Assembly (NCBI GenBank): GCA_963974305.1
Contig: CAXBCS010000005.1
Span: forward strand, 1,537-65,536
Length of the DNA stretch: 64,000 nucleotides
Direction of reading: 5' to 3'
Source of the DNA: an uncultured bacterium
Lineage (GTDB): Bacteria; Bacteroidota; Bacteroidia; Flavobacteriales; Flavobacteriaceae
Shown here: positions 4,367-52,175 of the stretch, piece by piece
Numbering within the stretch: the first letter of the stretch is position 1
Layout of the letters: every line of letters starts with the position of its first letter
Made by a program: the position numbers and the translations under genes
Notes under the pieces: model-generated
What the model saw: only the letters and a program-made list of their open reading frames with translations
Database searches by the model: none
Told to the model about the DNA's origin: nothing

Positions 4367-5881
4367 TTGAATAAGAAAACCATCCTAATGATTCTCGATG
4401 GCTGGGGCGTCGCTCCAGACCAAAAAGTATCTGCCGTAGATCAGGCGCAAACCCCTTTTGTCGATAGCCTATATACCAAATATCCACATAGTACTTTACT
4501 CACTCATGGTGGTAACGTTGGGCTTCCAGAAGGTCAAATGGGCAATAGCGAAGTAGGGCATATGAATTTAGGAGCTGGTCGCATTGTGTATCAAGATTTA
4601 GCAAAAATTAATTTGGCAATTAAAAATGACACTTTAAAGGACGAAATAGTATTAAAAGAGGCTTTCGCCTATGCTAAAGCATACAAGAAACCCATTCACT
4701 TGCTAGGCCTCGTTTCTGATGGCGGAGTGCATTCTCATATTGATCATTTGAAGGGTCTTTTATTAGCTGCCGAAGAAGCTGGAATTCCGCAAACGTATAT
4801 TCATGCGTTTACAGACGGTCGGGATGTAGATCCAAAATCAGGTAAGGGTTTTTTGGAGGATGTAGACGCTTTCGCGAAAGCGCACTCGGCACAGCTGGCC
4901 ACAGTCATTGGAAGATATTATGCCATGGACAGAGACAGCCGCTGGGATCGTGTACAAAAAGCTTATGATCTGCTTGTCAATGGAAGCGGTACCTTATCAG
5001 AAGATATTGGTAAAAGCATGCAGGCAAGTTATGAGGCCGATATTACCGATGAGTTTATAGATCCTCTAGTGATGGCAGAAAATGGCAAGCCCATCGCTAC
5101 CATCGCAGAAGGAGATGTTGTAATCTTTTTTAATTTCAGAACTGATCGTGGTCGCGAACTTACACAGATGTTATCGCAAAAGGATTTTCCTGAACAGGGA
5201 ACTAAAAAACTTAATTTGCATTATGTCACATTGACTAATTACGACAACACTTTTGAAGAAGTAAACGTCGTATATGATAAAGATAATTTAGTCGATACTT
5301 TGGGTGAAACTTTGGCGAAAGCCGGAAAAACCCAAATTCGAATCGCAGAAACTGAGAAATACCCACATGTTACCTTCTTCTTTAATGGAGGCCAAGAAAT
5401 TCCATTTGAAGGTGAAAGTCGTCTTTTATGTCCATCTCCAAAAGTGGCAACCTACGACTTACAACCAGAGATGAGCGCCTATGATATAAGAGATAAAATC
5501 ATTCCTGAAATTGAAAAAGGAGAGGTTGATTTTATTTGTTTGAATTTTGCCAATCCGGATATGGTGGGACATACTGGTGATATGAAAGCCGCTATCAAAG
5601 CTTGTGAAGTGGTTGATAGTTGTACAGAATCTATTGTAACGGCTGCTCTTGAACATGAGTATACAATTATCATTATTGCCGACCATGGTAATGCAGAAAC
5701 GATGATCAATCCTGATGGATCACCTAATACGGCCCACACTACCAATCCAGTGCCTATTATTCTTGTCGACCCAGATATTAAAGAAATACGAAATGGAATC
5801 TTAGCCGATGTAGCACCTACTATCCTTGATTTATTAGGTGTTGAGCAGCCAGCAGTCATGGATCGTAAATCTCTGATATAA
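4367..5881 (+). CDS. gpmI: 2,3-bisphosphoglycerate-independent phosphoglycerate mutase
   Basis: ILMILDGWG, GQMGNSEVGH (phospho-Ser), HAFTDGRD, GRYYAMDRD, NPDMVGHTG, ADHGN; TTG start chosen. Confidence 0.96.
   Translation: MNKKTILMILDGWGVAPDQKVSAVDQAQTPFVDSLYTKYPHSTLLTHGGNVGLPEGQMGNSEVGHMNLGAGRIVYQDLAKINLAIKNDTLKDEIVLKEAFAYAKAYKKPIHLLGLVSDGGVHSHIDHLKGLLLAAEEAGIPQTYIHAFTDGRDVDPKSGKGFLEDVDAFAKAHSAQLATVIGRYYAMDRDSRWDRVQKAYDLLVNGSGTLSEDIGKSMQASYEADITDEFIDPLVMAENGKPIATIAEGDVVIFFNFRTDRGRELTQMLSQKDFPEQGTKKLNLHYVTLTNYDNTFEEVNVVYDKDNLVDTLGETLAKAGKTQIRIAETEKYPHVTFFFNGGQEIPFEGESRLLCPSPKVATYDLQPEMSAYDIRDKIIPEIEKGEVDFICLNFANPDMVGHTGDMKAAIKACEVVDSCTESIVTAALEHEYTIIIIADHGNAETMINPDGSPNTAHTTNPVPIILVDPDIKEIRNGILADVAPTILDLLGVEQPAVMDRKSLI
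4867..4882. repeat. palindrome CGCTTTCGCGAAAGCG, copy 2
   Basis: Inside gpmI, read as AFAKA. Confidence 0.95.
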
Positions 5882-11410: not shown

Positions 11411-13408
11411 TTACTTGTTCAATACCTGTTTGAAATAAGCCGCTTTTTGAGTATCTCCAAGCTCGGTATACAAAAGCACGACTTCTTTGCCTAACTCGGT
11501 GTCTGTCGTGTCTAGTAAAAACGCTTTTGCTAGACTATCTGTAGCAATAACTCCTCTATTAATAGCTCCATAAAACTGGGCGACAGTCATCCAATATTGT
11601 TTTTGTTTAGGAATTGCAGGATTGGCAATCGCCATCGTGCTGAAACCTTTTTGTAAGGCGGCATGTGCCGCTGGCTGCTTGACCAAACTTAATAAAAAGG
11701 TATAGGCAGCCTCTAATTGTGGATTCACGACAAGAGCATCTTTAATTGCATCTACTGCTTTTGAGTACTGTTTTATAGCGGCATAACAATAAGCCGAATT
11801 GAGCAACATATCAGTATTTGACCCATCAATTGCTTTTGCCTTTTCAAAGAATCCCAGTGCCGCATTATAGTCTTTATAGTAGGTGTACTGAATCGCACCC
11901 AAATTATTTAAAACATAAGGTTGATGTGCATCAATCTCTAAGGCACGCTCATACAATGCCTGGACTTCTTTTATATGTTCTGTGCCCTTTGGCTCAAGTG
12001 ATCTTATAGGCAAAGTTGTAAACAGTTCATCAGCGAGAAAGGTATGTGCTCTAAAGGAGTTTTGTAAATGTTTGATATCATGACGATATAAGACCAAAGT
12101 ATTTTCCCAGTCGTCATTGCGCTCAATGGTTCGCAAACTATATATCCCAATAATAAAAACAAGACAGCTTAACAATGCAATATTTGCCGTTTGCATAGAA
12201 AATTTCGCTTTCGCGAAAGCGTAGCCACGCCACAACAATATTCCAAGAACCAAAACAAATCCAACAGAGAATATATAAGCAAATCGTTCGGCGACAATGC
12301 CTACCATTGGGTATACTAAATTGACAACAATTGCCATTACACCCAACCATATGACCAAGGCCAAGCCTAATACATCGCGTTTCAAGAATTTAATAATACC
12401 ATAGATCCCTAAAGGAATAAAAATCAAGATCGCCACCCATACTTGCCAATAAGAAAAATCAGCCAAAGGAATCTGACTGTATCCATAATAAAAGGAAAGA
12501 TCTTCTGGAAAAATGAGTAGTTGTAGATATAAGAATGCCGAGTAGCATCCAATACCCACACGAGTTAGAAAACTATCATCAACAAATAACGGATTTTCAA
12601 AAAATTGAAAGGTTCTAAATTCTTCCCCTGGAATGGCCGCTCTTAGGACTAAAACTATCACTAAAGACAGAGTCACCGAACCCACTGCCATTAAAATACG
12701 TTTGCCAGAGGTACTCGTATAGTATAGAAGTACAGGTATCAACCCAAAAAAGGCTAAGGAGCTCATCTTACTTAAGAATGCCAGTAAAGCCAAGGCACCA
12801 ATTCCCCACAAGCGTTTTTTCAAACCTTCCCTTGCAAATCGCACACATTCTATGAGTGCCCATAGCAGGAATACCATCATTAATAATTCGTCTCTACTCT
12901 TAATGTTATTTACGACTTCCGTATGGATAGGATGCACCATAAATAATATGGTAATGATAAGCGGTAATCCAAAGGAATAGCCTTGAAGAACCATGCTCAG
13001 GAGATAGAGTAGTAAAAAACCATTTAAAGCATATAATAGAATATTAATAAGGTGACTAACATTGGCCTCGGTAAGCACATTATTGTCTAGCTTTTCCTGG
13101 GGTTGCTGAGAATCTGGCAAAGCGCCAAAGAGGGATTTTTCTATCGCAAAGGTCGTATGTGTTAATGGGCGATATTCAAAGCGTGTTTCTCCATCATCTG
13201 CATAATAATTGGTAAAAAGTCCGGGGATATTCTCAATACCATCTGCTGTTTTAGGATTTCCATTAGTGACATAATAATCATCCATGCCATATTCATTATC
13301 GATGGCATTGAAATACACTAAAAAAGGGAGTAACAGTACAAAAAGATAGCTCAATTTGCGTTGTCTTGCAGTAAATTTTAAAATCATAAAGAACCTAAAC
13401 TTAGTCAA
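11411..13408 (-). CDS. TMTC-like GT-C glycosyltransferase with C-terminal TPR repeats
   Basis: MDDYY loop, EYRPLT, HPIHTEVVNNIKSRDELL, LSK, VAERFAY, RNDDW, then TPR-like helices; about 11 TM segments; start may be ATG 13387. Confidence 0.85.
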   Translation of the reverse strand: MTKFRFFMILKFTARQRKLSYLFVLLLPFLVYFNAIDNEYGMDDYYVTNGNPKTADGIENIPGLFTNYYADDGETRFEYRPLTHTTFAIEKSLFGALPDSQQPQEKLDNNVLTEANVSHLINILLYALNGFLLLYLLSMVLQGYSFGLPLIITILFMVHPIHTEVVNNIKSRDELLMMVFLLWALIECVRFAREGLKKRLWGIGALALLAFLSKMSSLAFFGLIPVLLYYTSTSGKRILMAVGSVTLSLVIVLVLRAAIPGEEFRTFQFFENPLFVDDSFLTRVGIGCYSAFLYLQLLIFPEDLSFYYGYSQIPLADFSYWQVWVAILIFIPLGIYGIIKFLKRDVLGLALVIWLGVMAIVVNLVYPMVGIVAERFAYIFSVGFVLVLGILLWRGYAFAKAKFSMQTANIALLSCLVFIIGIYSLRTIERNDDWENTLVLYRHDIKHLQNSFRAHTFLADELFTTLPIRSLEPKGTEHIKEVQALYERALEIDAHQPYVLNNLGAIQYTYYKDYNAALGFFEKAKAIDGSNTDMLLNSAYCYAAIKQYSKAVDAIKDALVVNPQLEAAYTFLLSLVKQPAAHAALQKGFSTMAIANPAIPKQKQYWMTVAQFYGAINRGVIATDSLAKAFLLDTTDTELGKEVVLLYTELGDTQKAAYFKQVLNK
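12206..12221. repeat. palindrome CGCTTTCGCGAAAGCG, copy 3
   Basis: Inside the TMTC-like gene, read as AFAKA. Confidence 0.95.
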
Positions 13409-15147: not shown

Positions 15148-16272
15148 ATGATCCCATTTAATGTCCCTTTCGCATCTGGAGATGAATTGACACAGATTTC
15201 GGCGGCAATAGCCGATAATAAGCTCTCTGGTAATGGACATTTTACAAAAAAATGTAAAGCCCTTTTCAAAGAAAGGTATGGTTTTGATAATAGCTTTTTA
15301 ACCACGAGTTGCACAGCGGCTATTCAGATGGTTGCAATAGCCATGGACTTAGAAGCTGGAGATGAAATTATACTTCCTTCTTATACCTTTAGTTCTACAC
15401 CAAATCCCTTCTTGATTGCAGGAGCCACAGTAAAATTTGCCGATTCAGAACCTGATCATCCTAACGTTTCTTTAAAGTCTATAGCTTCTCTTATTACCCC
15501 AAAAACAAAGGCTGTCATGGTGGTGCATTATGGCGGATACGCTTGCGATATCATAGGTATCAAGGCATTGTGTGACCAACATGGTTTGCTTTTAATAGAG
15601 GATGCTGCTCAATGCATACAGGGCTTTTACCAAGGGAAACCTTTAGGGAGTTTTGGAGACTTTTCGGTATTTTCTTTTCACGAAACCAAGAATATCCACT
15701 GTGGAGAAGGCGGACTGCTTGTTGTCAACAATCTGGATTATGTAAATAAAGCAGAGACCATTTGGAACTACGGTACAAATAAGAAAGCTTTTTTAAGCGG
15801 GGAAGTCGACAGCTATGAATGGACAGGATTAGGACTTTCATTTTGTCTTTCAGAGATCAATGCTGCTTATTTATACGCCCAATTACAGCATGTTGAAAAA
15901 GTTACACAAACACGAAAATCACTTTGGGAATCCTACTTTCGAGCTTTGAAACCTTTAGAGAAATTAGGGCTACTCAAACTCCCACAAATTAAGGGAGAAG
16001 ATAGCAGTTATCATACCTTTTATGTGTGTACGCTTTCGCGAAAGCGGTATCTCGACCTTCAAAAACATTTACTCACTAATTTTGTTTTGGCTGTACAGCA
16101 CTACTACCCTTTACATGAAAGTGCCTTTGCTAAAGCAGAAGGCCTCAGTGCAGATTTACCCAATGCTAGTTATTTTGGAGATAACCTTCTGCGATTACCA
16201 TTGTATGAAGGCTTAACAACAACTCAAGTTGACCAAATTACCAAGCTTATTTTAGATTTCTACAAAAACTAG
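15148..16272 (+). CDS. DegT/DnrJ family sugar aminotransferase, WecE/RffA-like
   Basis: TTSCTAA, PSYTF.ST.N.F, VHYGGYAC, EDAAQ, FSFHETKN..CGEGG, AAYLYAQL. Confidence 0.88.
   Translation: MIPFNVPFASGDELTQISAAIADNKLSGNGHFTKKCKALFKERYGFDNSFLTTSCTAAIQMVAIAMDLEAGDEIILPSYTFSSTPNPFLIAGATVKFADSEPDHPNVSLKSIASLITPKTKAVMVVHYGGYACDIIGIKALCDQHGLLLIEDAAQCIQGFYQGKPLGSFGDFSVFSFHETKNIHCGEGGLLVVNNLDYVNKAETIWNYGTNKKAFLSGEVDSYEWTGLGLSFCLSEINAAYLYAQLQHVEKVTQTRKSLWESYFRALKPLEKLGLLKLPQIKGEDSSYHTFYVCTLSRKRYLDLQKHLLTNFVLAVQHYYPLHESAFAKAEGLSADLPNASYFGDNLLRLPLYEGLTTTQVDQITKLILDFYKN
16031..16046. repeat. palindrome CGCTTTCGCGAAAGCG, copy 4
   Basis: Inside the WecE-like gene, read as LSRKR. Confidence 0.95.
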
Positions 16273-36560: not shown

Positions 36561-36622
36561 CATTCCCGCGAAGGCAGGAATCTCAATCCGTAATCACTTA
36601 TTCCCACGAAGGCGGGAATCTC
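36561..36622. repeat. tandem pair of dRS3-like REP hairpins (ATTCCCGCGAAGGCAGGAATCTC / ATTCCCACGAAGGCGGGAATCTC)
   Basis: Two near-identical ATTCCC-N8-GGGAAT-type units in the metH-metF spacer. Confidence 0.75.
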
Positions 36623-39401: not shown

Positions 39402-40400
39402 TTAAAACTGACAGTTTCTTGGGGTTACATTTTCAACGAGGGCAGCAATTGCCTTTATGTGTTCTGGCTGTGTGCCACAACAACCTCCAATGATATTGAC
39501 AAGGCTTTTATCTATGTATTTTTTGATTTGTGATGCCATTTGCTCTGGTGTTTCGTCATAGGCTCCAAAGGCATTAGGCAAGCCAGCATTGGGATGAGCT
39601 GAAATTCCAAAAGTTGTTCGTGAGGCAATAGCTTCCAAATGCGGTTGTAATTGAGAAGCACCTAGAGCACAATTAAACCCTACTGTAAGTAATGGAATAT
39701 GAGAAATAGAAATCAAAAAAGCTTCAGCGGTTTGCCCAGACAAAGTTCTGCCTGAAGCGTCAGTAATCGTTCCAGAAACCATGACTGGAATGTTAGAATT
39801 GCGCTCTTCTTTCACCTCTTCTATCGCAAACAAGGCTGCTTTAGCATTTAGGGTATCAAAAACCGTTTCTACTAATAAAATATCTACACCGCCATCGATT
39901 AATGCTTCAACTTGTTGCTTATAAGCTAGGCGTAGTTGGTCAAAAGAAACAGCTCGAAAACCTGGATCATTAACATCAGGAGACATACTAGCCGTCTTGT
40001 TTGTTGGCCCAATACTTCCAGCGACAAAACGAGGTTTGTGAGGCTCCCGATCAGTAAAAGATTGGGCAACTTCCTTGGCAATTTTCGCGGAAGCGAAATT
40101 TAACTCATACACCACATCTTCCAATTCATAATCGGCCATGGCGATAACAGTACTTGAGAAGGTATTTGTTTCGATGATATCGGCGCCGGCGGCAAAGTAT
40201 TTACCGTGAATCTCTGCAATGGCCTTAGGCTGAGTGATACTTAATAAATCATTATTCCCCTTAAGCGGAATATGAAAATCGGCAAATCGCTCCCCTCGAA
40301 AGTCTTCTTCGGTAAATTTATAGGCCTGAAGCATGGTCCCCATGGCTCCATCGAGAACCAGGATTCGTTTTGATAATGCTTGTTTTAATTTGTCTGTCAT
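39402..40400 (-). CDS. homocysteine S-methyltransferase domain (N-terminal half of split MetH)
   Basis: LDGAMGT, ETNTF, AGSIGPT, LVET.FDTLN.KAA, GFNCALG, PNAGLPN, GGCCGT. Confidence 0.95.
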   Translation of the reverse strand: MTDKLKQALSKRILVLDGAMGTMLQAYKFTEEDFRGERFADFHIPLKGNNDLLSITQPKAIAEIHGKYFAAGADIIETNTFSSTVIAMADYELEDVVYELNFASAKIAKEVAQSFTDREPHKPRFVAGSIGPTNKTASMSPDVNDPGFRAVSFDQLRLAYKQQVEALIDGGVDILLVETVFDTLNAKAALFAIEEVKEERNSNIPVMVSGTITDASGRTLSGQTAEAFLISISHIPLLTVGFNCALGASQLQPHLEAIASRTTFGISAHPNAGLPNAFGAYDETPEQMASQIKKYIDKSLVNIIGGCCGTQPEHIKAIAALVENVTPRNCQF

Positions 40401-43724: not shown

Positions 43725-45017
43725 TTAGGCTAAAACGGCGCGATCCACTTTGGCGAAAGCCGCAACCAAATCATTTTTTAAATCCTCAATATCCTCTAAA
43801 CCAACTGAAAGTCGGATCAAATCTTGCGTCACTCCTGTCGAAGCTTGAGCATCGGCACTTAATTGCTGATGAGTGGTGCTTGCTGGGTGGATTATCAATG
43901 ATTTACTATCCCCAATATTGGCCAATAGTGAAAACAATTCTGTTTCATTGGCTATTGTTTTGGCACTTTCAAAGCCACCTTTTACTCCAAAAGTTACAAC
44001 GCCGCTTTGTCCTTTAGGCAAGTACACATCAGACAAGTGCTTATAGGCACTACTTTCCAAACCAGGATAATTTACCCAGTCAACTTCTTCTTGTTGTTCT
44101 AGCCATTGTGCTAATGCGAGTGCATTTTGAGAATGTTTTTTAATTCGGATATCTAATGTTTCTAACCCTTGAATAATTTGAAAGGCGTTGAACGGACTAA
44201 GTGCAGCTCCGTGATCGCGTAGACCTTCGATACGCGCTTTGGCTATAAAGGCTGCAGCGCCAAGTACATCGTGATAAACGAGTCCGTGATAGCCTGCAGA
44301 CGGCTCTGTAAATTCAGGAAACTTGCCAGAAGACCAATCAAATGTTCCTGCGTCAATTATGGCTCCACCTAGGGAAGTTCCGTTTCCATTAATGTATTTA
44401 CTAAGGGAGTGAATTACAATATTAGCGCCGTGTTCGATCGGATTTAATAATGCAGGTGTCGCAACTGTGTTGTCTACGATAAGCGGGACTTTGTGCGCTT
44501 TCGCGAAAGCGGAAATACCTTTAATATCAAGAACGTCAAGTTTAGGATTCCCTAAAGACTCAATAAAGAATGCACGGGTATTTTCTTGAGCTGCAATTTC
44601 AAAATTCTTAGGATCTGATGGATCTACAAAGGTTGTTGTAATGCCAAAACGAGGCAGAGTAACACTTAATAAATTGTAGGTGCCTCCATACAAACTGCTT
44701 GAGGCTACAATGTGATCTCCAGAACGGAGTAGAGTGAGCAAAGTAGTATTGATAGCTGCCGCCCCAGAAGCTGTAACAACTGCTGCCAAACCACCCTCAA
44801 TCGCAGCCAATCGTTTTTCTAGAATATCATTGGTAGGATTGTTGAGGCGGGTGTAAATAAATCCCGCTTCGGAAAGATTGAACAAATTGGCCGCATGATC
44901 AGCATCGTTAAATACATAGGCCGTCGATTGATAAATGGGCACTGCTCTTGTTCCTCCGGTAAGTGCTGTGTCGTGTCCTGCATGCAACGCTTGGGTTGCT
45001 AGTTGATGTGTACTCAT
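43725..45017 (-). CDS. metY: O-acetylhomoserine aminocarboxypropyltransferase
   Basis: AVPIYQ, YTRLNNPT, ESLGNP, VDNT.ATP, HSLSK, LANIGD.KSL.IHPASTTH. Confidence 0.9.
   Translation of the reverse strand: MSTHQLATQALHAGHDTALTGGTRAVPIYQSTAYVFNDADHAANLFNLSEAGFIYTRLNNPTNDILEKRLAAIEGGLAAVVTASGAAAINTTLLTLLRSGDHIVASSSLYGGTYNLLSVTLPRFGITTTFVDPSDPKNFEIAAQENTRAFFIESLGNPKLDVLDIKGISAFAKAHKVPLIVDNTVATPALLNPIEHGANIVIHSLSKYINGNGTSLGGAIIDAGTFDWSSGKFPEFTEPSAGYHGLVYHDVLGAAAFIAKARIEGLRDHGAALSPFNAFQIIQGLETLDIRIKKHSQNALALAQWLEQQEEVDWVNYPGLESSAYKHLSDVYLPKGQSGVVTFGVKGGFESAKTIANETELFSLLANIGDSKSLIIHPASTTHQQLSADAQASTGVTQDLIRLSVGLEDIEDLKNDLVAAFAKVDRAVLA
44496..44511. repeat. palindrome CGCTTTCGCGAAAGCG, copy 7
   Basis: Inside metY, read as AFAKA. 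Confidence 0.95.
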
Positions 45018-45667: not shown

Positions 45668-46921
45668 ATGGCCTATTTATTTACCTCAGAGAGTGTATCT
45701 GAAGGACACCCCGACAAAGTTGCAGATCAAATTAGTGATGCACTTATTGACAATTTCTTAGCCTTTGATCCAGACAGTAAAGTTGCCTGTGAGACATTGG
45801 TAACCACTGGTCAAGTTTTTCTTGCTGGTGAAGTAAAAAGTAGCGCATATTTAGATGTGCAAAAAATCGCGCGTGAAGCCATTCGTAAGATTGGTTATAC
45901 CAAGGGAGAATATATGTTTGATGCAAATTCGTGTAGCGTCCTTTCGGCGATTCATGAACAATCAGATGATATTAATCGTGGGGTGGATCGTGATACCAAA
46001 GAAGAGCAAGGAGCAGGAGATCAAGGAATGATGTTTGGTTATGCGACCAAAGAGACGGCAGACTACATGCCATTGGCCTTAGATTTATCACATAAGATTC
46101 TTATTGAATTGGCAGATTTACGTCGTGAGAATGATGAAATTACTTATTTACGACCTGATTCAAAAAGTCAAGTAACTATTGAATATAGTGACAATAATGT
46201 ACCTCAACGTATAGATGCGATTGTAATATCTACACAACATGATGGTTTTGATGAGGACGACGTTATGCTTGCCCGTATCCGTCAAGATATAGTGGATATT
46301 CTAATACCAAGATTGGTAGGTAAATTACCACAAAAAGTAGCTGCATTATTTAATGACAGTATTAAATATCACATTAATCCAACAGGAAAATTTGTGATTG
46401 GTGGACCTCATGGAGATACTGGCCTGACAGGACGAAAAATTATTGTTGACACCTATGGTGGAAAAGGAGCCCACGGAGGTGGTGCTTTCTCTGGAAAGGA
46501 TCCATCTAAAGTAGATCGCTCGGCAGCTTATGCTACACGACATATCGCTAAAAATCTTGTTGCTGCTGGTGTAGCCGATGAATTACTTGTACAGGTTTCT
46601 TATGCTATAGGCGTCGTAGAACCAATGGGTATTTTTGTAGATACATATGGAACTTCAAAAGTTGGCTTAACCAATGGAGAAATTGCAGCCAAGGTTACTG
46701 AAATCTTTGATATGCGCCCAGCTGCTATTGAATCTCGCCTAAAATTACGAACTCCAATGTACAGTGAAACTGCTGCATACGGACATATGGGACGTAAAAA
46801 CGAGACAGTAACAAAAACCTTTGAGCGCTTTGACGGAACAACACAAGAAATGTCTGTTGAGTTGTTTACTTGGGAGAAATTAGATTATGTAGATAAAGTA
46901 AAAGCTGCATTTGGCTTGTAA
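45668..46921 (+). CDS. metK: S-adenosylmethionine synthetase
   Basis: [52 protein letters not shown]. Confidence 0.97.
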
Positions 46922-46943
46922 TTATCTTTGATATATAAATTAG

Positions 46944-46974
46944 AAAACCCTGGCCAGATGGTCAGGGTTTTTTT
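46944..46974 (+). terminator. metK terminator (possibly bidirectional)
   Basis: AAAACCCTGGCC-AGAT-GGTCAGGGTTTT plus T run. Confidence 0.75.
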
Positions 46975-47007
46975 ATGGTGTAACGAATAGCGGCACCTTT
47001 TATACTA

Positions 47008-47544
47008 TTATTCAAATACTATACTATCTACCTCAATTTCAAAAGTAGTCGCAGCCTTTGTATTTGAGATCAAACCAAGTCTTATGATTTCTTTGAGGTC
47101 TTCTTTGGACGGATTGCCTGAAATCTCTTCTCCTAAACGATAGGTTTTGAAATCTTCAAGCTGGAGACTCATTGTTTTCCATGCTCCATCTGTAATTGGA
47201 AGATTCACTTTATAATTAGGCCTCCAAAATTGTCTGTATTTATTAAGAGTAAGTCCAAAATCCTGTCCCGTAGACCTATATCTCACCGACACCATTTTGT
47301 AGGACGACAAATCATAGTCTCCGTAGGAAGTTCGCAAAGATGCAAAGCCTCCATTATTTTCTAATGAGACATTACCTTTAAAAATAATACTACTCTCTGT
47401 CATTGATACATCACCTTGAGAACGACCTCCCATAACTCCATCAAGCACAACAAACCAGTCATCGCAGGAATCACAAGTAGTTCCAAAATCAAAAGTCAAA
47501 GACGGCATACTAGTAAACAGAAAGATTAATAAAACATATTTCAT
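47008..47544 (-). CDS. CIA30 family protein
   Basis: VLDGVMGG.S, G.VSLENNGGFAS; start taken at MKYVLL. Confidence 0.85.
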   Translation of the reverse strand: MKYVLLIFLFTSMPSLTFDFGTTCDSCDDWFVVLDGVMGGRSQGDVSMTESSIIFKGNVSLENNGGFASLRTSYGDYDLSSYKMVSVRYRSTGQDFGLTLNKYRQFWRPNYKVNLPITDGAWKTMSLQLEDFKTYRLGEEISGNPSKEDLKEIIRLGLISNTKAATTFEIEVDSIVFE

Positions 47545-47570
47545 AGCGTTTTCCCTTAAAGGTACGCTTT

Positions 47571-47591
47571 CCTGCCTAAAGGACAGGCAGG
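47571..47591. repeat. mini-palindromic element CCTGCCTAAAGGACAGGCAGG inserted in a degenerate GCTTTCGCGAAA site
   Basis: CCTGCCT/AGGCAGG arms; flanks CGCTTT and CGCGAAA rejoin to CGCTTTCGCGAAA. Confidence 0.75.
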
Positions 47592-47624
47592 CGCGAAATT
47601 GCATTCAAATTCATTATCAGAGTT

Positions 47625-48248
47625 TTAACACTGTGCAATCACTCTCATCCTTTTTTTATAATAACGGTCAATAAATATCTGATTGACAAAAAGCATCAAA
47701 AATATGAAGCGAGAAATCCATGGAAATATAAGCGCACAGATAGCCGCAATGATCCAGATAGCTACAACATTAACACCTCTAGCTCGAAACCATTTAAATT
47801 CAAGTTCAGGGAAGACATTGTCTTTATCAATTCGGTAAACGTAGCCCATCATAAGAAGATTTAATACTCCTATCAATGTAAGGTTTAAACAATAGAAGAT
47901 AAAAGGTCCCGCAAGGCCAAAACCATTTACATACATTGCCGTTGAAAATGGCAAGAGTACCATACTTAATAAAAAGAAAATATTAACTCAAAAGAGTTTA
48001 TTGTCAAATTCAGTTACAAACTTCATCAGTCTTAAGTGTCCCAACCAATATAAGGCACTTACTAAAAAACTCACAAGTAGTCCAATAAAGGCAGGGATTC
48101 TATTTGATAGAACTTCACTAAAAGCTGTGGACCCCAATTCTCTCCCAGTGGGAACAGCCACCTCCAGAATAAGTAGTGTTATTACAATAGAAAAAACTGC
48201 ATCACTAAAATTAACGACTCTACTCTTATTATATGTTATTTCTTCCAT
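47625..48248 (-). pseudogene. TMEM175-family (DUF1211) K+ channel with an internal TGA
   Basis: RV.NFSDAVFSI.ITLL.L signature, YW..H; TGA at 47988-47990 in KLF*VNIFFLLSMVLLPFST; the two ORF pieces are in frame. Confidence 0.85.
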
Positions 48249-48287
48249 AGTTCTAATGCACATACAATTAGAAAATGAAGCGCAAAA

Positions 48288-48315
48288 AAAAGCGACGGGT
48301 TGTTGCCGTCGCTTT
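48288..48315 (-). terminator. terminator after the outer-membrane barrel gene
   Basis: AAAGCGACGG...CCGTCGCTTT stem with an A run on the left. Confidence 0.75.
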
Positions 48316-48352
48316 CTGAACTGTAATTTATTTACTTATTAATTTAATAGGA

Positions 48353-51145
48353 CTATAAATTATACTTTACCGTAAACATCACTATTCGAGGTTGTACGAA
48401 ATACTCCGTATTTCGAATAGAAATATCATTTACACTGTTATTACTTATCACATCTACATCAAGTAAATTGGTCGCTTGAACACGAAATTCCCATTTACTA
48501 TCTGGTTTTTGGTAGTATAGATTTGCCTCTAAGAAAGAGTACATATTATCAATTTCAGTTGTATCATCATCATCATCGTAGTTATACAAACTCCAATCGG
48601 CACCAAAGGTGAATCCTTTTAAGAAGTTAATTTCCATGTTGGCAAACGGACGGTTAGTAGTAAACGTTCGGTCGGTTGTGCCATTGTCAGAATTTGTGAT
48701 AGTATGATTGTACCCAATTTCAAAGTTAGGAGCCTCTTTAAAGTTAGTCTCTGCACTTGTTCGGTAATTCTGAGTGATGTTTGTTGTATTTCGATCGGCA
48801 CCGTTAATGATGTTATTCAAGTCGCTGTATGAACCATTGGCGCTAAGATTTAACTTCCATTTTTTAAATCGCTTTGAGAATCTAGCATTCCCGCTAAAAG
48901 TCTCATCGGCAAAGTTGGTGTTGTTTACCACAGTAGTAACCTGATTGATTCCAGAAAAATCTCCAGAAGTTTTAATAGGATCTACACGTTTGGTATAGTT
49001 GATTCCTCCAAACAAACTGGTGAAATTAAACATGCTAAAACTAAAATAATTTAAGCTTGCTGTGTGAAAGATCGCATTTTCAATGTCACGATTTCCTCTA
49101 AAAAGACTATTATAATTACTAAGCAACAATCCCTCAGCAAAATTATTGACATCCGTATATTGAGCGGTCATTTGGTAATTAGCTCGTAAGCTCTTTCCTT
49201 GAGCAAACTCAACAACTGTAAATAAATCGGGAAGTAATTTCCAATCATTCTTCTCTGTGGTACTTCCTAATTGCTCACTTTTGGTGCCATAGTTATGTAA
49301 GGTCAAACCTGGAGTAATTGTAAAGATTCCTGTTTTCACTTTATAATGTAAACCTAAGAACACATCACTAAAATTGAACTTCACATTATTCCCGATAACA
49401 TCTCCTTCTACATTTTCTGTCAACGGATCTTCACTTCCATTTTCTAAAATTTGAAAAAGACTAGAGTCAAAATTTTGAGTACTTAAAGTGGTTCCCAAGG
49501 TGAAATTTAAATTACTTTTATCATTCAAAATGTAGTAATAATCCACTTTGGCATCCAATTTATTACTTTGAACATTCTTGTTTTGATTTAGGTCGTATAA
49601 GCCATTCATACCTATTTGGAAAGGTATTGTACTAACAAACTCAGGGTTATCTGGATCATCAGGCATGGTGTCATCATAATCGTCATTACGCTGAGTAAAA
49701 GGTTCTTCATCTAAACGCGCTCTATAGAATGGATTCTCATCGGCGTATAGGTGTCTAAAAGTTCCAGAGAATATGTTTTTCTCATCAAGGGTGTAATACA
49801 AATTGACATTCTGATTGATTGAAAATGGTTCATTTTCCTTGTTTTGATCAGTGATGTCTTGTTCTATTGCATCGCCATCATCGATTATACTTATACCATT
49901 AGAAAACTCTGTTTGGCTGGATTTCTTAGCAAGAATATCATAATCAAACTGCAAACTTGCACTTGGCTTGTAGACAGAACTAAACTTTACCATTCCTAAT
50001 TGGTTACGTTGATCACTTACCTCATCAAAACCTTGAGTAAATCCTTGGTTAATAAAGGTGTTCAAGGAATTATTAATAAAGTTTGTGCTGTTATCACTAT
50101 ACAAAGCAAAACCACTCACATCCCATTTTGTAGTTGCGGCATAGGTAAAATTGACCGCAGCAAAGTTAGTTTCAATGTCATTAGCCCTGTTATTCTGAGT
50201 CGTCAAAAATCCTAGTCCGCCATCAGAAATATCAAAAGAAGTCCCTCCTCTTTGATTGAAGTTTCTAAAGCCTCCTGTAAAGTTGAAATAATCTCTAAAG
50301 GTAAATGGCACCTCTCCAGTATTGTTAAAATCGGTGATAATATTAATACTTCCTTTGGGACTGTAATAGAACAACTTTGGTTTCACTAGGTATCTAGCCT
50401 TTTCACCGTCTCCCATACCAGCGGTGATTTCTCCAAACCAAAAGTTTTTCTTTCCTTCTTTCAACTTTAAGTTAATCGCAATATTATCCTGATCATTCCC
50501 AAGTCCGCGCATTTGCGACACTTCATTGTAGTTCTTGAGGACCTCTACTTTCTTCAAGGCATCGGCTGGAATGTTTTGAGTCGCAAGTTTGGTATCTCCG
50601 TCAAAGAAATCTTTTCCTTCAATCATCACCTTGGTCACCACTTTTCCTTCTACTTCTATTTGTCCATCGTCATTGACTTCGACGCCTGGAAGTTTTTTAA
50701 GGACATCTCCAAGTTTCCTTTCAGTACCATTGGTAAAACTATCGGTATTATAAACGATTGTATCGCCTTTGATGCTTACAGGCATTTCATATACGAGTTC
50801 TACATCATCTAATTGATTGGGATCGGATTTCAATACAAAATCTCTTTCCATATCCTGAGCATCTTCTGCAACAGTAAGTTCTAGGAGTTCTGATTTTAGG
50901 CCTAGGTAACTAATTTTTAGGTCATAGGTGATTCCTGAAGTAAGTGAGAGTCGGTAACGACCTTGCCCATCTGTAATTCCGTAAGATTCTAGAGTACCTT
51001 CAGCTTTGTTAGATGCAATTACATTTGCAAACTCTAAAGGGCTACCAATACTGTCTTTGATTACACCTCGTAGCTCTATACTTTGCGCAAAAGCTCCTGT
51101 TGACATTGCAAGAAGCAACGCCAAAATTAAATTTCTTACTGTCAT
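48353..51145 (-). CDS. outer-membrane beta-barrel protein with N-terminal carboxypeptidase-regulatory-like domain (TonB-dependent-receptor-like; typical GLPGLI partner)
   Basis: Signal peptide; KGDTIVY, DVLKKLPGVEV, KVMIEGKDFF, QPR..MFTVKYNL C-terminus. Confidence 0.85.
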   Translation of the reverse strand: MTVRNLILALLLAMSTGAFAQSIELRGVIKDSIGSPLEFANVIASNKAEGTLESYGITDGQGRYRLSLTSGITYDLKISYLGLKSELLELTVAEDAQDMERDFVLKSDPNQLDDVELVYEMPVSIKGDTIVYNTDSFTNGTERKLGDVLKKLPGVEVNDDGQIEVEGKVVTKVMIEGKDFFDGDTKLATQNIPADALKKVEVLKNYNEVSQMRGLGNDQDNIAINLKLKEGKKNFWFGEITAGMGDGEKARYLVKPKLFYYSPKGSINIITDFNNTGEVPFTFRDYFNFTGGFRNFNQRGGTSFDISDGGLGFLTTQNNRANDIETNFAAVNFTYAATTKWDVSGFALYSDNSTNFINNSLNTFINQGFTQGFDEVSDQRNQLGMVKFSSVYKPSASLQFDYDILAKKSSQTEFSNGISIIDDGDAIEQDITDQNKENEPFSINQNVNLYYTLDEKNIFSGTFRHLYADENPFYRARLDEEPFTQRNDDYDDTMPDDPDNPEFVSTIPFQIGMNGLYDLNQNKNVQSNKLDAKVDYYYILNDKSNLNFTLGTTLSTQNFDSSLFQILENGSEDPLTENVEGDVIGNNVKFNFSDVFLGLHYKVKTGIFTITPGLTLHNYGTKSEQLGSTTEKNDWKLLPDLFTVVEFAQGKSLRANYQMTAQYTDVNNFAEGLLLSNYNSLFRGNRDIENAIFHTASLNYFSFSMFNFTSLFGGINYTKRVDPIKTSGDFSGINQVTTVVNNTNFADETFSGNARFSKRFKKWKLNLSANGSYSDLNNIINGADRNTTNITQNYRTSAETNFKEAPNFEIGYNHTITNSDNGTTDRTFTTNRPFANMEINFLKGFTFGADWSLYNYDDDDDTTEIDNMYSFLEANLYYQKPDSKWEFRVQATNLLDVDVISNNSVNDISIRNTEYFVQPRIVMFTVKYNL

Positions 51146-51172
51146 TTTGAATTGTTTGATTGGTTGTACACT

Positions 51173-51193
51173 CCTGTCTTCCCGATAAGGCAG
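51173..51193. repeat. degenerate CCTG-type mini-palindrome (CCTGTCTTCCCGATAAGGCAG)
   Basis: Similar arms and length to the 47571 element; intergenic. Confidence 0.4.
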
Positions 51194-51278
51194 AGTAGTG
51201 TTCTCGAGCCGCAGTAATGTGTTTACATATCACCTTAGACTAAGGAACAAAGAGTATATTAAAATATTTTACTAGCTT

Positions 51279-52175
51279 TTAAAAGCGTCTCCCTCCTCTG
51301 TTGTCACCTTTACGACTACCTCCACCAAAGCGATCTGCCATTTCTTTTGCCTTTTCTTCGACAATTTTGAGGTATTCTTCTCGTGTCACTTCTTTTCCTT
51401 TAGAAGGAACTTCAATCACAACTTCTTCTTTAGGATTCAAAACAACCTTTGTACATAAAATGGTTGTATTATTTGTGCTTAACTCCAGAATCAAACCTGG
51501 CAAACCACCAAACTCATCTGGACCATGAGAAGCGGGAATCATAGGTGTATACCAAGCGGTAATCGTTTCTGTTTTTGGCTCTTCAATTTCAATTTCATCC
51601 TCTGTGCTTGCTGTAGCTGAAGAATCTACCTTTTTATCCCTAGCTTTTTGGGCATCACTAGCTCGACGTCCCATACGGCTCCACATATTTTGCTCAATAT
51701 CACGAGTGGCAACAGCCTTAAACGCTGGGTATTGTCCAATCATTTTACTTTCTTTCACCAGCTCCCATTCTAACGAATTAATGGTATCCTTTACAAGAAA
51801 GGTTTTTCCCATCATGTTATTTTCACGTGCATAAGCTTTAGAAGTTGCATTTTTATAAATACCACCTTGCGTAAAACCTCCGCCCCAACGGCCCCCACCT
51901 TGTCCAGGTACAGCTAATTTTTCTTCTTCCTTATAAAAGGATTCTTCATTGGTGAAGCTGAGGGTATATTCCTTCTCTAAGAAATTTTTCATACGCTCCA
52001 TAATTTGCTTTTTACGTTGCTCTGTCATTTGTTGCCCTCCTCTATTAAAACGAGACATGTCCATGGTCGTTTTTGTTTTGTAGGTTGCAACACCCTGAAC
52101 CTTTTGTGCATACATGGGCATTGCCATAAAGCAAATCGCACATAAAATTCCTATTTTTCTTAAAGTCGTTACCAT
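51279..52175 (-). CDS. GLPGLI family protein
   Basis: WEL.KESK.IGQY...KA, AWYTPMIP..HGP..FGGLPGLILEL. Confidence 0.92.
   Translation of the reverse strand: MVTTLRKIGILCAICFMAMPMYAQKVQGVATYKTKTTMDMSRFNRGGQQMTEQRKKQIMERMKNFLEKEYTLSFTNEESFYKEEEKLAVPGQGGGRWGGGFTQGGIYKNATSKAYARENNMMGKTFLVKDTINSLEWELVKESKMIGQYPAFKAVATRDIEQNMWSRMGRRASDAQKARDKKVDSSATASTEDEIEIEEPKTETITAWYTPMIPASHGPDEFGGLPGLILELSTNNTTILCTKVVLNPKEEVVIEVPSKGKEVTREEYLKIVEEKAKEMADRFGGGSRKGDNRGGRRF

Follow-up and report, generated by a model that had tools for sequence, protein, structure and literature searches.

A mobile 21-bp hairpin nested site-specifically in an iterated 16-bp palindrome of Dokdonia-type Flavobacteriaceae

The stretch of DNA considered here, referred to below as the window, encompasses 64,000 nucleotides (positions 1537-65536 of contig C5) from the draft genome of an uncultured marine member of the Flavobacteriaceae, and within it a 16-bp palindrome is interrupted by 21 GC-rich bases that form a hairpin. 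The interrupting sequence is a copy of a very small mobile element, which is non-coding, forms a hairpin and was inserted precisely and without duplication of its target. Nearly all insertions of the element within this lineage are in the 16-mer, with an orientation that is fixed for most of its subfamilies, and it has undergone lineage-specific bursts of insertion, being tolerated in coding sequence at a length of 21 nt only. We consider it probable, at about 0.7, that a mobile 21-bp hairpin is inserted site-specifically into the palindrome and would be moved as single-stranded DNA (ssDNA) by a trans-acting protein. A first-pass annotation of the window had proposed that the palindrome is the insertion target of a very small non-autonomous element, and this proposal is supported by the restriction of the insertion junctions and by nine empty sites in relatives.

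The draft genome to which the window belongs (G000) comprises 3.47 Mb in 101 contigs with a GC content of 38%, and is placed in the Dokdonia genus cluster of the Flavobacteriaceae. Comparisons among congeners cover 34 genomes of the genus, in which G015 is the closest sampled relative of G000, and a wider survey covers 201 Flavobacteriaceae genera. The hairpin family was defined genome-wide by the pattern CCTGCCT-N7-AGGCAGG with up to two mismatches, with the reversed pattern as control; within the window, the pattern CCTGCC-N5-12-GGCAGG was used for the hairpin and up to three mismatches were allowed for the 16-mer. The composite of palindrome and hairpin is made up of three parts, as follows.

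47565-47570, no strand assigned: left arm CGCTTT of the interrupted 16-bp palindrome, which in relatives reads uninterrupted as ACGCTTTCGCGAAAGCGTA.
47571-47591, no strand assigned: 21-bp GC-rich hairpin insert CCTGCCTAAAGGACAGGCAGG, with a 7-bp stem and the loop AAAGGAC, a member of the alpha subfamily.
47592-47602, no strand assigned: right part of the palindrome, CGCGAAA (47592-47598), with the derived arm TTGC replacing GCG (relatives have AAAGCG).

The original reading of positions 47565-47598 as CGCTTT, the hairpin and CGCGAAA is exact in the window sequence, where TTGC follows, and deletion of the 21 bases does leave CGCTTTCGCGAAA, the first 13 bases of the 16-mer. The window contains one match to the hairpin pattern against an expectation of 0.01, and 13 copies of the 16-mer against an expectation of 0.04.

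The target is the 16-mer CGCTTTCGCGAAAGCG, of which G000 has 307 exact copies, together with 572 copies of the 10-bp core. It is present in all 34 genus genomes, at between 12 and 713 copies each. Most copies (371 of 415, or 89%) are found inside long open reading frames (ORFs), compared with 92% for random positions, and 253 of these 371 share the frame that encodes Ala-Phe-Ala-Lys-Ala. The flanks of plain 16-mers show no conservation, and the 16-mer is kept in place at the orthologous sites that were aligned (the window site, leuC, hisS, bshC, C23 and C63). In these respects the 16-mer behaves like the HIP1 palindrome of cyanobacteria. A C5 DNA methyltransferase (PF00145) was rejected as its explanation, since the enzyme is found in only 17 of the 34 congeners and the 16-mer in all of them. 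Within the window the palindrome has the following further copies.

4867-4882, no strand assigned: intact target palindrome.
12206-12221, no strand assigned: intact target palindrome.
16031-16046, no strand assigned: intact target palindrome.
44496-44511, no strand assigned: intact target palindrome.
2206, 10717, 20710, 22833, 36681, 37685, 41043, 43746 and 53064: nine 16-mers with one to three mismatches.

The hairpin family numbers 47 copies in G000, and the reversed control gives none. Thirty-eight of the 47 are located inside a recognisable 16-mer, with several more in decayed palindromes, and the junctions are restricted to the points after positions 4, 6, 10 and 12 of the 16-mer, which hold 8, 11, 12 and 7 copies, respectively. 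Because the target is a palindrome, these four insertion points reduce to a single rule, whereby the hairpin lies directly 3' of CGCK (CGCT or CGCG) on either strand. The flank enrichment that the first-pass annotation had anticipated is therefore evident in G000, and it recurs in five further genomes, listed here with each junction written as the two positions that it parts within the 16-mer.

G006: GCT/hairpin/TTCG (4/5 or 12/13), 27; TTT/hairpin/CGCG (6/7 or 10/11), 2; perfect hairpins, 35.
G021: GCT/hairpin/TTCG, 12; TTT/hairpin/CGCG, 3; perfect hairpins, 17.
G048: GCT/hairpin/TTCG, 11; TTT/hairpin/CGCG, 0; perfect hairpins, 13.
G014: GCT/hairpin/TTCG, 11; TTT/hairpin/CGCG, 0; perfect hairpins, 12.
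G250, the metagenome-assembled genome (MAG) MFD03250.bin.3.131: GCT/hairpin/TTCG, 0; TTT/hairpin/CGCG, 39; perfect hairpins, 42.

The favoured junction thus accounts for 27 of 35 perfect hairpins in G006, 11 of 13 in G048 and 39 of 42 in G250. The asymmetric loop, xCCGGxx, has a single orientation relative to CGCK in nearly all copies of these five genomes; insertion in one orientation 3' of a tetranucleotide is seen for more than 100 beta and gamma copies, with the alpha copies flipped, a pattern that founder effects could mimic. Among the 34 congeners, perfect hairpins range from 0 to 35 per genome, reaching up to 81 copies in G006 when up to two mismatches are allowed, and 17 of the 34 have no perfect hairpin despite the presence of the palindrome in all. 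The variant CCTGTCTGCCGAACAGGCAGG is common to G000 and G006. Two palindromes of G000 harbor double inserts: one, at C10:39185-39232, lies in frame within an ORF of 488 aa, and the other is at C10:18941. In effect, the element is what remains of a perfect palindrome of 22 bp once a single base is taken away, and it is through this loss that it stays in frame at 21 bp; its common variants have a stop codon in none of the six frames.

Some departures from these typical forms were also seen. Relatives of 24 bp, of the form CCCGCC-N12-GGGCAGG, are found at 10/11 or 11/12 of the palindrome at C1:95581, C24:15674 and C15:56023, all non-coding, and in G250 the palindrome is often extended to 24 bp, as GTTCCGCTTTCGCGAAAGCGGAAC. 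The region C18:1-37000 of G000 has no intact palindrome core (TTTCGCGAAA) in its 37 kb, where about six are expected; it holds four hairpins in strongly decayed palindromes, with a fifth just past it at 40069 (the five spread over 34 kb), and no recognisable transposase or nuclease was found among the ORF starts listed for it, a Pfam scan not having been made.

Empty sites, which the first-pass annotation had proposed looking for, were found at nine loci in the form of intact palindromes in relatives. The outcome that would have refuted its proposal, flanks without enrichment and no empty sites, did not occur. The window site is empty in G015, G002, G007, G004, G011 and G024, in all of which the unbroken palindrome precedes the same start codon by about 25 nt; in G001 the palindrome at this site is degenerate and the hairpin is also absent. 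The other eight loci, with their G000 positions, are as follows.

C53:10091, leuC: empty in G015, G002, G044 and G021.
C63:4993, HAD hydrolase gene: empty in G015, G022, G002 and G019.
C12:32221, hisS: empty in G002 and G016.
C8:14821, bshC: empty in G015.
C23:31926, unnamed 265-aa ORF: empty in G015.
C33:31152, class IV aminotransferase gene (ilvE-like): empty in G015.
C25:44979: empty in G015.
C30:248, radA: empty in G044 and G006.

Filled and empty alleles differ by a gap of 21 bp at eight of the nine loci, the window site included, and the difference in aligned length at radA is 21-24 bp. Target duplication was found at none of the nine loci, and the joined flanks restore the 16-mer exactly. 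The element was rejected as a miniature inverted-repeat transposable element on account of this lack of a target-site duplication.

The same sites also reveal something of the history of insertion. At the C63 site, which is empty in G015, the genomes G023, G006 and G048 have a hairpin of different sequence, and the ilvE-like site is filled at 6/7 in G000 and at 4/5 in G006. The same orthologous copy was thus hit independently in different lineages, which marks the palindrome as a hot target. An older insertion is found elsewhere in the window.

51173-51194, no strand assigned: old decayed hairpin CCTGTCT-TCCCGATA-AGGCAGA, with flanks eroded to ACACT and GTAGTG.

The orthologue of this copy in G015 is an intact composite, GTACGCTTT[CCTGCCTACCGTACAGGCAGG]TGCGAAAGG, in a recognisable 16-mer, so some insertions predate the divergence of G000 and G015 and others postdate it. 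This copy had been described in the first-pass annotation as a 21-nt decayed relative that has no palindrome flanks; it is a genuine old copy, but it is 22 nt in length and its palindrome flanks, eroded in G000, are intact in G015. The G000 copy folds no better than shuffled sequences. The window copy arose after the split from the nearest sampled species. The leuC site has a broader record of length change, in that G046 has an unrelated 27-bp Ser/Thr-coding insert at the same point as the G000 hairpin and an insert of 18 bp lies a few codons before that point in G001; the LeuC loop is a general indel hotspot.

The copies within genes follow a strict length rule. By a strict definition there are 35 composites in G000, of which 14 are coding and 21 non-coding. 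All 14 coding composites have an insert of 21 nt, in frame, that adds seven residues, with AF[LPTGQAG]AKA as the typical encoded product. Among the 21 non-coding composites the insert measures 21 nt in sixteen, 20 nt in two and 24 nt in three, copies of 20 nt being found outside genes only. Hosts confirmed by Pfam are the aconitase-family LeuC, HisRS (HisS), a RadA-like protein, a class IV aminotransferase and BshC. The intergenic share is 60% for composites and about 11% for plain palindromes, an excess that fits purifying selection against most genic insertions.

The window copy itself lies between two co-oriented genes, in the 5' leader of the downstream one.

47011-47544, minus strand: downstream gene for a secreted CIA30-domain protein of 178 aa (Pfam PF08547, E = 4e-30).
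47628-47963, minus strand: upstream co-oriented ORF of 112 aa with no Pfam match, the composite lying between its stop codon and the CIA30 gene.

The spacer between the two genes is 80 nt, and 26 nt separate the end of the hairpin from the CIA30 ATG. The start of the CIA30 gene and its signal peptide are conserved among relatives, and the order of the two genes is identical in six metagenome contigs, which share 99.7-99.96% identity. All six of these near-identical contigs have the window hairpin unchanged, and the copy is hence fixed in the population. Its rare loop, AAAGGAC, is shared with the genome copy C56:10608, which indicates that the rare-loop variant itself was copied. The window copy is an old relic, slightly decayed, with later changes to loop and flank. 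On the minus (mRNA) strand the RNA of the composite folds at -16.8 kcal/mol (z = -3.15). A U-tract after the stem is absent on this transcribed strand, the next bases being AAAGCGUACC, and the hairpin was on this ground rejected as an intrinsic terminator; a search of 46500-52000 against Rfam at E <= 1 gave nothing at the composite site. The effect of the insert is probably little beyond the addition of a stable stem-loop to the leader RNA.

The hairpin is also found more widely. Among the 201 sampled genera of Flavobacteriaceae, 32 have it, at 1-14 copies, with none for the reversed control in any of them. The flanks in other genera differ from the 16-mer, and the 21-mer is on this account an entity of its own. 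Hairpins in other genera also form head-to-tail or back-to-back arrays, and some copies are contained within a 253-bp tandem repeat (G090:C14, G066:C17 and viral contigs). Viral contigs gave 37 hairpin matches, mostly in contigs of 65-68% GC that are unrelated to the Dokdonia-type lineage; a low-GC 35-kb IMG/VR contig, UViG_3300044606_000228, has three copies. The composite of hairpin in 16-mer was matched, in a scan of the collection, in Dokdonia sinensis, a Dokdonia MAG, a Tamlana sp. and an uncultured Flavobacteriaceae MAG.

With regard to mechanism, the element may move as single-stranded hairpin DNA, helped by a trans-acting protein. On physical linkage the leading candidate would be a tiny Ssn-like GIY-YIG nuclease, whose gene is tRNA-adjacent in congeners with the hairpin 15-40 nt upstream, and the alternative candidate is a RAYT-like Y1/HUH transposase. 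The Ssn proteins are single-domain GIY-YIG nucleases, which bind to their own hairpin repeat in single-stranded form and cleave ssDNA a few bases upstream of that repeat (PMC11893778). With family membership scored by Pfam PF01541, the hairpin was found beside a small GIY-YIG gene in nine genomes, and not in G000. Two tandem units lie behind a tRNA-Arg gene in G231, and each consists of the hairpin and, starting 15 nt after it, a GIY-YIG gene of 83 aa; in G055 a 97-aa GIY-YIG gene has the hairpin on both sides. Within the genus to which the window belongs, a 20-bp hairpin of the family is located about 15-40 nt upstream of a homologous GIY-YIG gene next to tRNA-Arg in G023 and G048 and next to tRNA-Leu in G010, G049, G019, G045 and G023; in the tRNA-Leu cassettes it is placed in a tRNA 5' fragment. 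A 22-bp version in G046, of the same genus, lies farther from its GIY-YIG gene. The 20-mer CCTGTCTGCCGACAGGCAGG of these cassettes is also a solo palindrome insert in G000, and the perfect 20-mer form of the hairpin is CCTGCCTGCCGGCAGGCAGG, with the peptide LPAGRQ. Genes for GIY-YIG proteins near hairpins in G015, G048 and G021 were rejected as cassettes, since other genes intervene and the distance is 780 bp or more, and G250 has four tandem small GIY-YIG genes at C13:144792-146091.

The RAYT-like candidate is linked to the hairpin by its distribution. A 187-aa RAYT-like gene is present next to hemF in G021, G006 and G014, which rank first, second and fifth by perfect copies, and a RAYT-like gene is also present in the burst MAG G250. 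Over the 201 genera, the RAYT-like gene is found in 10 of 32 with the hairpin and in 19 of 169 without it (Fisher p = 0.006, kinship uncorrected), and in 7 of 12 genera with at least three hairpins compared with 22 of 189 others (p = 3e-4, kinship uncorrected). The first-pass annotation had proposed a search for a co-distributed HUH/Y1 transposase or nuclease; beside this association across genera, no HUH/Y1 gene was found in G000 itself. In G021 (C43:59800-61700) and G006 (C3) the RAYT-like gene (173-187 aa) lies between an EI24-like membrane gene and hemF, and in G006 it is read as one ORF with hemF; the copy in G250 (C17) is located elsewhere. At the hemF locus of G000 the two neighbors are directly adjacent, with no gene between.

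A number of observations weigh against the proposal of a hairpin moved as ssDNA by a protein in trans. Neither enzyme could be placed in G000: the hairpin-linked type of GIY-YIG cassette was not found in the draft, and a profile search of this genome for Y1_Tnp (PF01797) and a tblastn search with the RAYT-like, IS200-like and Y1b proteins of relatives gave nothing. As neither candidate gene was found, the roughly 47 copies in G000 look like relics. The absence of the cassette is itself not proven, since no more than 24 tRNA genes could be seen in the draft, whose assembly may lack cassettes linked to tRNAs. The three small GIY-YIG genes that G000 does have (C26:19357, C22:8254 and C1:17249) are flanked by a different, SRM/NTS-like hairpin of the form TTCCCGCCTTCGCGGGAA, of which there are about ten in the genome, none inserted in a 16-mer; one of these hairpins lies within the window.

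36563-36580 (genome C5:38099-38116): SRM/NTS-like hairpin TTCCCGCGAAGGCAGGAA.

In G006 and G021, the congeners with the most hairpins, homologues of the cassette GIY-YIG protein are only 40-42% identical and have no hairpin beside them, and the RAYT-like genes of G021, G006 and G250 are bordered not by the hairpin but by different REPIN-like repeats of their own. In G021 these take the form of nested inverted repeats of about 125 nt on both sides of the gene (CAGACCTACAAGG...ACCTCGCAGGTC...), with related short motifs in G006 and G250. Also adverse are several properties of the insertions themselves. The window copy belongs to the alpha subfamily (loop ACCGGAC), in which the loop is flipped with respect to the orientation rule; G000 has about ten copies of this subfamily, G021 two and G006 one. 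In G250, as in G006, neighboring copies often differ in strand, so that there is no IS608-like polarity with respect to the replication strand, and in G000 the insertion strand against GC skew, at 19 to 10, is not significant. The TTGC arm patch was derived jointly with the hairpin at two loci, the window and the ilvE-like site, which insertion of 21 nt alone does not predict. Finally, no presence/absence polymorphism was found at the window site in the six metagenome contigs, and current activity is therefore not demonstrated.

Three of these points, the co-derivation of TTGC, the flipped alpha loop and the lack of replication-strand polarity, keep alive a different model, in which composite alleles spread by conversion or homing, a nicked or broken 16-mer being repaired from a hairpin-bearing copy via short arms, with no transposase. 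We judge this model to be unlikely. The arm variant AAATTGC for AAAGCG (window 47599-47602; C33:31180; C4:115276) accompanies alpha-type hairpins, the TTGC arm being present in 6 of 20 hairpin-bearing copies and 7% of plain copies (p = 0.0025), and its occurrence with alpha hairpins at loci that are empty in relatives suggests co-conversion of flanking bases. Conversion is also in keeping with the presence of one site and orientation class per lineage, possibly a founder effect, and with the palindrome itself, which appears to have been written into genes through substitution. However, the same subfamilies occur in two junction contexts (after CGCT and after CGCG) and, amid unrelated flanking sequence, in GIY-YIG cassettes and other genera, and the 21-mer must consequently move alone at least sometimes. 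The homology arms would, moreover, measure only 4-12 bp, and the flanks at leuC, hisS, C23 and C25 are unchanged or differ by one base.

Much less credible is the reverse history, in which the composite is ancestral, plain 16-mers are the scars of precise excision or deletion, and the window copy is a survivor. Elements of the HUH type do excise precisely, and the decayed copy at 51173-51194 is older than the split between G000 and G015. This reading is disfavored because half of the congeners have hundreds of palindromes and no perfect hairpin at all. The window site is filled in G000 only and empty in seven relatives, the plain palindrome is kept by relatives at leuC, hisS, bshC and C23, and an orthologous palindrome holds hairpins of different sequence or position in different lineages. 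The location of 89% of plain palindromes within ORFs, in a preferred frame, also stands against it.

We attach a similarly small likelihood to the view that selection maintains the hairpin for a function, for instance as a site of protein binding, an RNA stabilizer or a terminator, so that it recurs through usefulness and not mobility and forms one structured element with the palindrome. The composites do have a strong stem-loop, at -17 to -20 kcal/mol compared with -4.3 for the plain 16-mer, they are enriched in intergenic DNA, and the window copy is fixed in its population. Nevertheless, the Rfam match and the U-tract are both lacking, copies occur in both orientations relative to genes, and unrelated housekeeping genes contain 14 of them as seven-residue inserts; copy number among congeners varies from 0 to 35, and old copies decay. 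The chance fall of a GC-rich inverted repeat into a palindrome, for which nothing speaks beyond the short length of the motif, can be dismissed in view of the window expectations of 0.01 and 0.04, the 47 genomic copies against none for the reversed control, and the more than 100 copies at identical junctions across five genomes.

The closest precedent for a mobile hairpin of this kind is found in cyanobacteria, where the insertion of SDR5 into HIP1 was reportedly described by Elhai et al. in 2008 (Genome Res 18:1484). In later accounts, SDR5 is a 21-nt repeat found between the third and fourth bases of HIP1 in the Nostocaceae (PMC4390886, PMC5861425, PMC13756078). As there described, the two systems share a dispersed repeat of 21 nt at a fixed point in a highly iterated, mostly genic palindrome, with a presence that varies between related genomes, and there too no enzyme or function is known. 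They differ in the host, here the Flavobacteriaceae, in the target, here an unrelated palindrome of 16 bp compared with the 8-bp GCGATCGC, and in having two mirror pairs of insertion points instead of one; the present hairpin also has a 'home' beside small GIY-YIG genes. The hairpin and 16-mer are thus best seen as an analogue of SDR5/HIP1 and not as a member, the likeness being drawn from published descriptions.

The REP/REPIN elements and their RAYT proteins are similar in that they encompass dispersed, species-variable imperfect palindromes of 20-40 bp (PMC3733652, PMC3116915), some families of which sit in repeated small palindromes, and in that a RAYT-like gene correlates with the hairpin; REPs nested in palindromic targets and REPs within genes, including repair genes, are on record (PMC3733652). 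In contrast, the hairpin has no GTAG or CGTC end tag, its flanks being CGCT or CGCG on the 5' side and TTCG or AAAG on the 3' side, G000 has no RAYT, and the RAYT-like genes of relatives are bordered by other repeats. REPs are also mostly extragenic, whereas 14 of the 35 composites here (40%) are in frame in genes and 21 are non-coding.

The SRM/NTS (dRS3) repeats of Ssn resemble the hairpin as short, GC-rich, dispersed hairpins that flank a single-domain GIY-YIG gene of about 80-100 aa, in this case in congeners only, and in having a polarity that depends on the nucleotides immediately 5' of the hairpin (Chenal et al. 2025, PMC11893778). The stem, however, is CCTGCCT/AGGCAGG and not the ATTCCC-N8-GGGAAT of SRM, and Ssn is known for cutting near its hairpin repeat, not for moving it, with SRM insertion into a second repeat family not described. 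The IS200/IS605 elements (IS608, ISDra2; PMC6006769) appear to share insertion 3' of a specific tetranucleotide that is mostly in one orientation, duplication-free and hairpin-dependent. They differ in having distinct left and right subterminal hairpins, whereas the whole of the present element is one hairpin, and a cognate TnpA was not found in G000 and replication-strand polarity is absent. The Rickettsia palindromic elements (RPE) are 100-150 bp in length. These elements and the GC clusters or byp-like hairpins of yeast mitochondria are likewise palindromic, GC-rich, in-frame inserts tolerated in conserved genes of an AT-rich genome, but they belong to unrelated taxa and the targeting of a second iterated palindrome is not reported for them.

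Literature searches found no published description of the 16-mer, the hairpin or their nesting in the Flavobacteriaceae. What is new is the site-specific nesting of a hairpin in a palindrome, with empty sites, a target rule and two enzyme candidates, SDR5/HIP1 being the precedent. To our knowledge, 21-bp mobile elements with clean empty sites are rare, and this hairpin shows how short a unit of mobile DNA can be. It also provides a second independent case after SDR5/HIP1, in culturable marine flavobacteria, with from 0 to about 80 copies among congeners and two concrete candidate proteins, advantages that make the question testable via comparative genomics and ssDNA biochemistry. The essential enzymes LeuC, HisS, RadA and BshC tolerate inserts of seven residues at the hairpin sites, and annotation and alignment should mask or model both repeats. 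A more speculative idea, possible but in our view doubtful, is that the palindrome and the hairpin are two halves of one system, in which a site-specific single-strand nuclease, an Ssn-like GIY-YIG enzyme or a relative, would use CGCK in the extruded palindrome as its recognition site and add hairpins there by pasting or templating. If this were so, the genome-wide maintenance of the palindrome and the spread of the hairpin would share one enzyme and, taken with the independent case of SDR5/HIP1, would point to a mode of action of 'genome signature' palindromes that is general and as yet undescribed.

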